DNA from: Escherichia coli | GTDB taxonomy: Bacteria; Pseudomonadota; Gammaproteobacteria; Enterobacterales; Enterobacteriaceae | Direction: 5' to 3' (one strand) | NCBI RefSeq assembly: GCF_046105845.1 | Contig: NZ_CP151004.1 | Length of the DNA stretch: 64,000 nt | Shown: positions 6,026-10,101 of the stretch, in pieces | Layout of the letters: each line of letters starts with the position of its first letter | Numbering within the stretch: position 1 is the stretch's first letter | Made by a program: the position numbers and the translations under genes | Notes under the pieces: model-generated | What the model saw: only the letters and a program-made list of their open reading frames with translations | Database searches by the model: none | Told to the model about the DNA's origin: nothing

Positions 6026-6787
6026 TTACCGCCACATCGCGTGTTTATCGCGATAGCAATCGACCCACATCGCCGTCGCACCACAAACGGCAACGGGCAT
6101 GATGAACAGATTAAGCAGAGGGATCATCGTAAACAGGCTGGTTAAAGCACCAAACTGCATATTGGTGATTTTGCGTGTGCGCAGGGCGGTGCGCATCTCT
6201 TTAAACGGCACTTTGTGGTTATCGAAGGGGTAATCGCAATACTGGATGGCTAACATCCAGGCGCTAAACAGGAACCACAGTACCGGCGCGACGGTTTGCC
6301 CAATACCAGGGATGAAGTAAAGAATTAGCAATACAATTGCGCGCGGCAGATACCAGGCAAATTTTTGCCATTCGCGTTTCATGATTCGCGGCACATCTTT
6401 CATGATACCGAAAATCCCGGTATCTGGCGGTGTAGCGCCAGTCAATCGTGCTTCCAGTTGTTCAGCCAATAAACCATTGAACGGAGCGGCAATCCAGTTA
6501 GCAATCGTTGAGAAGAAATAGCCAAACACTAACAGCACAGAGATGACAGCCAGAGGCCACAACAGATAGCTCAGCCATTGTAACCAGTCCGGAACATAAC
6601 TCATGAGAGTCGGGATCCAGACATCGAGTTGCGTAAAGAGCCACCAGAATGCGCCCCCCATCAACAAAATATTGACCAGCAGCGGTAAAATAACGAAACG
6701 CCGAATCCCAGGTTGCGAGACGAGCTTCCAGCCTTGCGCAAAATAGTAAAAACCGCTGCGTGGGGCAGATGTGAATGATGAAACCAT
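6026..6787 (-). CDS. cysZ: Sulfate transporter CysZ
   Basis: 253-aa multi-pass membrane ORF recognised as CysZ; synteny next to cysK. Confidence 0.9.
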
Positions 6788-7016
6788 AATCAGGATGAGC
6801 TCCTTTTGACCAATCCCAGGAAAATTCTGCGTATTTTACCGGGTAATTGCGCAATGGACAGTTAGGATATGTTCGAAAAAACAGCAAAAAGCACGATTTC
6901 ATCTATCTTTGTGCTGTGAAAGTTAATAGTGCACTTGCACTTGAGGTAATCGGCAAATACTCTTAGTGAGTAAATGTTTGCCGTGGTGGCAAGGTGTTAG
7001 AACAACAGAGAATATA

Positions 7017-8015
7017 ATGATGCAGGATTTGCGTCTGATATTAATCATTGTTGGCGCGATCGCCATAATCGCTTTACTGGTACATGGTTTCTGGACCAGC
7101 CGTAAAGAACGATCTTCTATGTTCCGCGATCGGCCATTAAAACGAATGAAGTCAAAACGTGACGACGATTCTTATGACGAGGATGTCGAAGATGATGAGG
7201 GCGTTGGTGAGGTTCGTGTTCACCGCGTGAATCATGCCCCGGCTAACGCCCAGGAGCATGAGGCTGCTCGTCCGTCGCCGCAACACCAGTACCAACCGCC
7301 TTATGCGTCTGCGCAGCCGCGTCAACCGGTCCAGCAGCCGCCTGAAGCGCAAGTACCGCCGCAACATGCTCCGCGTCCAGCGCAGCCGGTGCAGCAACCC
7401 GTGCAGCAGCCTGCCTATCAGCCGCAGCCTGAACAGCCGTTGCAGCAGCCAGTTTCGCCACAGGTCGCATCAGCGCCACAGCCAGTGCATTCAGCACCGC
7501 AACCGGCACAACAGGCTTTCCAGCCTGCAGAGCCTGTAGCGGCACCACAGCCTGAGCCTGTAGCGGAACCGGCTCCAGTTATGGATAAACCGAAGCGCAA
7601 AGAAGCGGTGATTATCATGAACGTCGCGGCGCATCACGGTAGCGAGCTAAACGGTGAACTGCTTCTTAACAGCATTCAACAAGCGGGCTTCATTTTTGGC
7701 GATATGAATATTTACCATCGTCATCTTAGCCCGGATGGCAGCGGCCCGGCGTTATTCAGCCTGGCGAATATGGTGAAACCGGGAACCTTTGATCCTGAAA
7801 TGAAGGATTTCACTACTCCGGGTGTCACTATCTTTATGCAGGTACCGTCTTACGGTGACGAGCTGCAGAACTTCAAGCTGATGCTGCAATCTGCGCAGCA
7901 TATTGCCGATGAAGTGGGCGGTGTCGTGCTTGACGATCAGCGCCGTATGATGACTCCGCAGAAATTGCGCGAGTACCAGGACATCATCCGCGAAGTCAAA
8001 GACGCCAACGCCTGA
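7017..8015 (+). CDS. zipA: Cell division protein ZipA (start taken at ATG ATG CAG, 51 nt inside the track ORF)
   Basis: N-terminal TM helix [26 protein letters not shown], charged region, long P/Q-rich linker and C-terminal FtsZ-binding domain. Confidence 0.9.
7270..7590 (+). repeat. Low-complexity Pro/Gln-rich coding repeats (ZipA flexible linker)
   Basis: Repeated cag-ccg-gtg-cag-cag-cc motifs encoding PQPVQQP-type units. Confidence 0.5.
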
Positions 8016-8076
8016 TACACTTAAGGCAAATTAACTCCTCTTCGAACCCCCGCTTGTCGGGGGTTTTTAGCATTGA

Positions 8077-10101
<2,025 letters not shown>

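Follow-up and report, generated by a model that had tools for sequence, protein, structure and literature searches.

The zipA gene in the analyzed stretch of Escherichia coli DNA (64,000 nucleotides; referred to as the window) encodes a protein of 332 residues. Its proline- and glutamine-rich (P/Q) region is very probably a disordered tether whose length varies among strains by in-frame insertions and deletions bounded by short repeats, and the 332-residue form is probably the ancestral one. Across 5,426 complete genomes of E. coli, 11 ZipA lengths from 295 to 340 residues were found, corresponding to linkers of 66 to 111 residues. The original prediction, made from the letters of the window, held that the linker is prone to slippage and that its length may differ between strains. 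A comparison of zipA alleles across strains bore this out: the length and sequence of the linker are not identical in all strains, and the length changes coincide with short direct repeats, which is the pattern expected of slippage. The linker was also proposed to be a hotspot of expansion and contraction. Changes in both directions do occur, but the difference between 332 and 328 residues is an old and stable polymorphism, and the other lengths are found in <1% of genomes.

Identification of zipA and its domain organization

zipA is located at 7017–8015 on the plus strand and comprises 332 codons and a stop codon (8013–8015). The first ATG is at 7017, and the N-terminal sequence is MMQDLRL. 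The mechanically generated list of open reading frames (ORFs) extends the gene in the 5' direction to a GTG at 6966, and the RefSeq start in related strains is the ATG equivalent to 7017. The product matched the TIGR02205 equivalog over model positions 1–284 of 284 (E=8e-125; score 416.5 bits, cut-off 119.65), and Pfam ZipA_C (PF04354) was found at residues 198–321 (E=3e-46). The neighboring genes are cysZ (6026–6787, minus strand) and ligA (8086–10101, plus strand). This order is seen in the ORFs of the window and in the RefSeq annotation of all E. coli loci fetched.

The domain map of K-12 ZipA consists of an anchor (residues 7–28), a charged region (29–85), a 'PQ' domain (86–185), and a globular FtsZ-binding domain (186–328) (PMC6904479). 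The domain limits of the window protein agree with this map. The N-terminal membrane anchor (residues 7–28; 7035–7100, plus strand) is a hydrophobic run in the translation and a putative helix, with limits taken from PMC6904479. It is followed by an acidic and basic charged region (residues 29–85; 7101–7271, plus strand; limits from the same source), the P/Q-rich linker (residues 86–188; 7272–7580, plus strand), which was delimited by composition and repeats, and the C-terminal globular FtsZ-binding domain (residues 189–332; 7581–8012, plus strand), which was delimited by ZipA_C and by coverage in the Protein Data Bank (PDB). The PDB chains 1f46, 1f47, 1f7w, and 1y2f align to residues 189–332. 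All of the ZipA chains in the PDB begin at K-12 residue 185 or later, except for 9iue, whose deposited sequence is the full 328 residues. The C-terminal domain was invariant in the first four E. coli alleles aligned. The linker is described as an unstructured, extended, and flexible tether in the statement of PMC6904479 that refers to Ohashi et al. 2002.

Composition and repeat structure of the linker

The original prediction placed a long, low-complexity, Pro/Gln-rich linker at 7270–7590, and measurement gave nearly the same segment, 7272–7580. It contains 31 Pro and 26 Gln residues among 103 (55%), as compared with 9% in the remaining protein, and its GC content is 65%, versus 51% in the remainder of zipA. 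The segment was said to be encoded by reiterated CAG/CCG-rich units. CAG (18) and CCG (15) are indeed its most frequent codons, but they do not form a tandem array. Tandem Repeats Finder reported no array in 7000–8020 at a minimum score of 30, and the picture of the linker as a microsatellite was rejected on this basis. The repeats are instead 5–13 nt long, imperfect, and largely dispersed. When maximal direct repeats were counted (length ≥6 nt, no more than 150 nt apart), the linker had 63, whereas equal-sized control segments of zipA had 8 and 4. The spacing was a multiple of three, and thus in frame, in 59 of the 63.

Only one adjacent imperfect pair of 12-nt units (10/12 identical) and one 24-nt-spaced pair exist in the linker. 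The former, located at 7386–7409 on the plus strand, consists of CCGGTGCAGCAA and CCCGTGCAGCAG, encodes PVQQ-PVQQ, and was established by alignments and junction counts. In 11 genomes, the second PVQQ unit ends in CAA rather than CAG, which brings the two 12-nt units closer in sequence; this codon could raise slippage at the site. The latter pair is a direct repeat of GAGCCTGTAGCGG at 7530–7570 on the plus strand, exact over 13 nt in the window and 94% identical over 17 nt. G at 7532 together with T at 7535 is found in the window, N54, GMM076, EC28, and S87, and most strains have A and C at these positions. With G and T, the first copy of the 24-nt-spaced repeat matches the second exactly over the 13 nt, and the G/T pair could have arisen by copying between the two repeats.

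The PVQQ indel and the two major alleles

ZipA of K-12 MG1655 has 328 residues, in agreement with the original prediction, which had compared this length with the 332 residues of the window. The difference of four residues is a 12-nt indel at 7389–7400 of the window, where the sequence reads CAG CCG GTG CAG CAA CCC GTG CAG CAG CCT; that of K-12 reads CAG CCG GTG CAG CAG CCT. The window therefore encodes PVQQ-PVQQ and K-12 a single PVQQ. The 12-nt segment is bounded by an 8-nt direct repeat, GTGCAGCA, with copies at 7389 and 7401. Dropping 7389–7400 yields a 328-residue allele of the K-12 type, and an extra copy yields 336 residues. Within the linker, the window also has Arg120 and Ser152 in place of His and Pro in K-12, and the two proteins are identical beyond the linker.

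To count the alleles, we used junction probes of 44–52 nt with fewer than 28 consecutive bases in common with other alleles, so that megablast cannot seed there. A 70-nt query spanning the indel was set aside because its alignments were merged or shortened at the ends by BLAST, and its counts were not clean. The one-unit junction was found in 3,065 of the 5,426 complete genomes (~56%) and the two-unit junction in 2,333 (2,067 plus 266 with a CCT variant). Hence, >99% of the genomes have one of these two junction types. The three-unit junction occurred in one genome, and 27 genomes with zipA fitted neither of the major probes.

The window protein is identical to the UniProt sequence ZIPA_ECO45 and was found on at least 1,000 contigs by exact look-up, and the K-12 form is ZIPA_ECOLI. 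Both entries are reviewed, and both lengths were therefore already on record. At the DNA level, no complete E. coli genome has a zipA identical to that of the window; the top match, at 99.8%, is VCSW7, a strain isolated from soil that has an identical ZipA protein. Among the aligned alleles, only that of the window has A at 7352 and at 7478.

Rare in-frame length alleles

Rare alleles were sought by sampling BLAST rankings and then probing the junctions predicted from the repeat map, and at least one locus was fetched for each allele. The alleles other than the two major ones are carried by about 45 genomes (0.8%), which is a lower bound. Every verified natural allele is in frame.

Expansions gave the two longest forms. 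The 340-residue form has a 24-nt tandem duplication of 7530–7553 at the 13-nt GAGCCTGTAGCGG and is present in six genomes, which originate from three or more countries; the loci fetched from EC28 and S87 are 1,023 nt. It is carried on the 7532 G/7535 T haplotype. The 336-residue form has a third PVQQ unit at the 8-nt GTGCAGCA (one genome).

Deletions gave the shorter forms. In one genome (GMM076), 328 residues were reached by a loss of 12 nt in a different register, with a microhomology of 3 nt. The 324-residue form has a 24-nt deletion at the 7-nt GTAGCGG (one genome), and the 321-residue form has a 21-nt deletion at the 6-nt GCAGCC on a one-unit allele (one genome). A length of 315 residues was reached in two ways, by a 51-nt deletion at the 6-nt CAGCCG in two genomes with different SNP backgrounds (N54 and TUM13936) and by a 39-nt deletion at the 10-nt TGCAGCAGCC on a one-unit allele in seven genomes. 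The 314-residue form (GF43, one genome) has a 54-nt deletion with 2 nt of exact homology. The most frequent rare form has 309 residues and a 69-nt deletion at the 8-nt CGCAGCCG. It was found in 22 genomes, whose strains include O25:H4 and known ST131 references, and is fixed in the O25:H4/ST131-like group. Two pig strains with another SNP background have 305 residues owing to losses of 69 and 12 nt at the same repeats as the respective single deletions. The shortest form, with 295 residues, has a 111-nt deletion at the 8-nt CAGCAGCC (one genome). The core of the linker that takes the rare in-frame deletions (69, 54, 51, 39, 21, 111, and 69 + 12 nt) extends from 7312 to 7444 on the plus strand. 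By exact look-up in a large collection of contigs, the 309-residue protein was found on 827 contigs and the 295-residue protein on 23.

Exact look-up of synthetic three-unit and zero-unit proteins in four backgrounds gave no match, and this negative is uninformative because the junction probe later found the three-unit allele on another background. A multi-probe search for deletions, in which predicted junctions from three haplotype backgrounds were concatenated and the first 10 kb of 17 kb served as the query, gave a noisy listing of 350 genomes, which consisted mostly of spurious gapped alignments seeded by unsampled SNP haplotypes; 2013C-4282, for example, has the plain 332-residue form. 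Three of the four leads that were followed were real. In the search for duplications, random 30-nt spacers were placed between the probes.

Two records are out of frame. The annotation of FCI23 gives zipA as a pseudogene (994 nt, frameshifted), in which an odd GGCGCCC replaces sequence at the equivalent of 7389–7400, and FCI5 has lost 2 nt at the PVQQ units. These are the sole out-of-frame records, and both belong to one Colombian project. Because zipA is an essential gene, the frameshifts are most simply explained as assembly errors.

Breakpoints and a proposed mechanism of length change

An exact microhomology of 6–13 nt was present at 9 of the 11 measured breakpoint types, and the two exceptions (GF43 and GMM076) have 2–3 nt. 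Only 4.3% of the possible codon-multiple deletions in the linker have a microhomology of at least 6 nt; the association of breakpoints with short direct repeats thus exceeds chance. Moreover, three junctions (those of the 24-nt deletion and duplication and of the 39-nt deletion) were forecast from the repeat map alone and were then found in genomes.

A plausible course of events starts from the coding of the tether, which draws on a few codon types (CAG, CCG, CCT, GCG, and GTG) in one frame. Because this small set of codons recurs in one frame, the DNA of the linker is dense in short repeats with in-frame spacing. Replication slippage, or deletion and duplication by short homology between such repeats, would then add or drop whole codons. 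The function of the tether probably requires length, flexibility, and Pro/Gln richness rather than an exact sequence, and the length variants would stay functional and persist for this reason. Slippage is our proposed molecular mechanism, and the length changes are presumably near-neutral in function. This is not the slippage of a classical microsatellite, because there is no tandem array.

Polarity of the major alleles

The linker was masked, and a neighbor-joining tree was constructed on 4,768 columns of the flanks that were free of gaps. In this local tree, all of the deep E. coli branches carry two-unit alleles, and the one-unit alleles fall in one clade, alongside the two-unit alleles of O157:H7 and C11. 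The substitution A>T at 7484 is present in all five plain one-unit alleles sequenced and in two deletion alleles derived from them, and it is present in no two-unit allele. Because of the two-unit alleles on the deep branches and this linkage, the 332-residue form looks ancestral within E. coli, and the 328-residue form looks like a derived contraction that has been mainly inherited. The 12-nt contraction of K-12 would have risen to ~56% of the sequenced genomes chiefly by descent and partly by recombination. The allele frequency alone is no proof of a high mutation rate, because one old event followed by inheritance mostly explains the 332/328 difference. The split is an old and essentially biallelic polymorphism rather than an ongoing flicker.

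The PVQQ site is length-variable throughout the genus Escherichia. In E. albertii and two more non-coli Escherichia genomes, an 18-nt unit encoding QPVQQP is present two or three times at this spot, and one further Escherichia lineage has a single copy. One non-coli Escherichia genome is labeled E. coli in GenBank, and its ZipA is 93% identical to that of the window. The QPVQQP unit of the non-coli genomes is located at the site matching 7383–7412, and more linker indels were seen downstream of it.

Recurrence and recombination

The contraction from two units to one had at least three origins, one of which used a different register, and the 69-nt deletion is found in the O25:H4/ST131-like group and separately in the pig strains. 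The presence of the same indels on different haplotypes argues for recurrence, and short recombination tracts could account for some of these cases. An alternative explanation is that all of the apparent recurrences are single mutations shuttled between backgrounds by homologous recombination. In its favor, recombination clearly acts at this locus in C11, which has two units and 7484A in a segment surrounded by B1-like one-unit flanks; its flanking informative SNPs and LigA protein are identical to those of one-unit B1-like strains (7250–7829 equivalent). The local tree conflicts with single sites here, and this violation of the four-gamete rule implies recombination. C11 may thus have received a short tract by recombination, or its haplotype may be an ancestral intermediate. 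The allele of HCP5S3_I2 is harder to reconcile with shuttling. An upstream SNP at a distance of 48 nt separates it from the ST131-like 69-nt-deletion allele, and a downstream SNP at a distance of 84 nt separates it from the main one-unit allele; it would require two very short conversion tracts. The contraction in GMM076 cannot be the same mutation as the main one because its register differs, and the copy number of a related unit ranges from one to three across the genus. We therefore consider it unlikely that recombination accounts for the recurrences as a whole, and prefer repeated, repeat-bounded indels.

The linker in Enterobacteriaceae and possible selection on its length

In 78 loci from other species of Enterobacteriaceae, the linker has 74–120 residues (sd of the whole set, 8.8), and its Pro plus Gln fraction is 0.41–0.65, with a mean of 0.55. 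The C-terminal part has 144–151 residues in these loci. The anchor and the charged part together have 85–89 residues in 81 enterobacterial ZipA sequences besides that of the window (the 78 species loci and three E. coli alleles). The composition is maintained as the length and sequence drift, as expected for a flexible tether.

The confinement of the linker to 74–120 residues with a conserved composition implies some constraint, and it might be supposed that particular lengths are adaptive because they tune the distance or dynamics between the membrane and the Z ring. Selection of this kind would explain the spread of the derived 328-residue allele to ~56% of genomes and that of the allele shorter by 23 residues, which is fixed in the O25:H4/ST131-like group and present on 827 contigs. 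However, the length changes in E. coli are small next to the variation between species. Databases sample successful clones, and their frequencies mirror this sampling; hitch-hiking is therefore sufficient to account for the allele frequencies. In the searchable literature, no phenotype data for any allele were found, and the literature search yielded no relevant work on natural zipA length variants, on zipA deletions in ST131, or on experiments with ZipA linker length. An adaptive origin of these lengths appears rather improbable. It is likewise improbable that some of the natural tether lengths (linkers of 66 to 111 residues), such as the tether shorter by 23 residues or the K-12-type contraction, measurably affect fitness, cell size, or the anchoring of the Z ring and owe their spread to this effect. 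Near-neutral drift of tether length by repeat-bounded indels remains our preferred explanation.

Artifacts and phase variation

The length differences might be sequencing or assembly artifacts in a GC-rich and repetitive stretch. FCI23 and FCI5, which are out of frame exactly at PVQQ in an essential gene, are simplest to understand as errors, and the forms with 295, 314, 321, 324, and 336 residues are singletons in the complete genomes. As a general explanation, this is very improbable: each major allele is present in thousands of independent assemblies, all of the rare alleles examined are in frame, both major forms are reviewed in UniProt, and three of the rare forms recur: that with 309 residues is on 827 contigs, that with 295 residues is on 23, and that with 340 residues is in six genomes sampled in three or more countries.

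The linker might also be regarded as a contingency locus, in which a hypermutable tract switches the state of ZipA at high frequency in the manner of phase variation. This idea is effectively refuted, despite the CAG/CCG-rich coding DNA and the identical indels that recur on different backgrounds, since Tandem Repeats Finder found no perfect tandem tract, the real variants are all in frame so that nothing is switched off, >99% of the genomes have one of two lengths, the length tracks the local phylogeny, the main deletion is always linked to the SNP 84 nt away in the sampled alleles, and on/off switching of an essential gene such as zipA would be lethal.

Comparison with known systems and implications

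The closest relative is the P/Q domain of K-12 ZipA (residues 86–185), which shares the gene, the domain order, and the composition with the window; the window differs by one extra PVQQ unit and the two linker substitutions. ZipA is a known protein with a disordered domain whose 328- and 332-residue forms are on record, and the variation described here is an ordinary property of disordered linkers rather than a new system.

The disordered C-terminal linker of FtsZ varies widely in length and sequence between species and functions mainly through its length and flexibility. Like the ZipA linker, it is a low-complexity tether of the same machinery with conserved composition and variable length. 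It belongs to another protein, however, and experimental data on length tolerance exist for the FtsZ linker, whereas none were found for ZipA in the literature search. The contingency loci of Haemophilus and Neisseria contain perfect tandem tracts in which slipped-strand mispairing shifts the reading frame and switches expression at a high rate. The ZipA linker resembles them in the repeat-mediated gain and loss of DNA within a coding region, but it has no tandem array, its changes are in frame, and >99% of genomes have two lengths. Proline-rich envelope spacers of the TonB type are extended segments that separate a functional domain from the membrane anchor and are generally considered to be length-tolerant. 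The proteins and motifs are different, and the likeness to ZipA is an analogy only.

For annotation, differences of 4 to 37 residues in ZipA between E. coli strains should be treated as real alleles and not as truncations, and a call that breaks the frame at the PVQQ spot should raise the suspicion of an assembly error. Some of the alleles are convenient lineage markers, such as the 69-nt deletion in the O25:H4/ST131-like group. The natural series from 295 to 340 residues could also be used to test the effect of tether length on the membrane anchoring of the Z ring.

Other features of the locus

Among the complete genomes, two zipA matches are on plasmid-typed records, a single genome carries two copies, and 1 of the 5,426 is without a match. 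In the gap between zipA and ligA, a hairpin followed by a U-run was found at 8044–8066 on the plus strand, with an RNA folding energy of −15.5 kcal/mol (z = −3.2 versus shuffles). It looks like an intrinsic terminator. A simple promoter and terminator scan found no promoter-like site 5' of zipA and did not flag the hairpin. Four ORFs of 66–101 residues within 7152–7618 overlap the linker in other frames: 7234–7539 on the plus strand, and 7243–7548, 7152–7397, and 7418–7618 on the minus strand. Their Arg/Ala/Leu-rich translations are mirror images of the CAG/CCG codons, and they are most likely stop-free through composition rather than genes.
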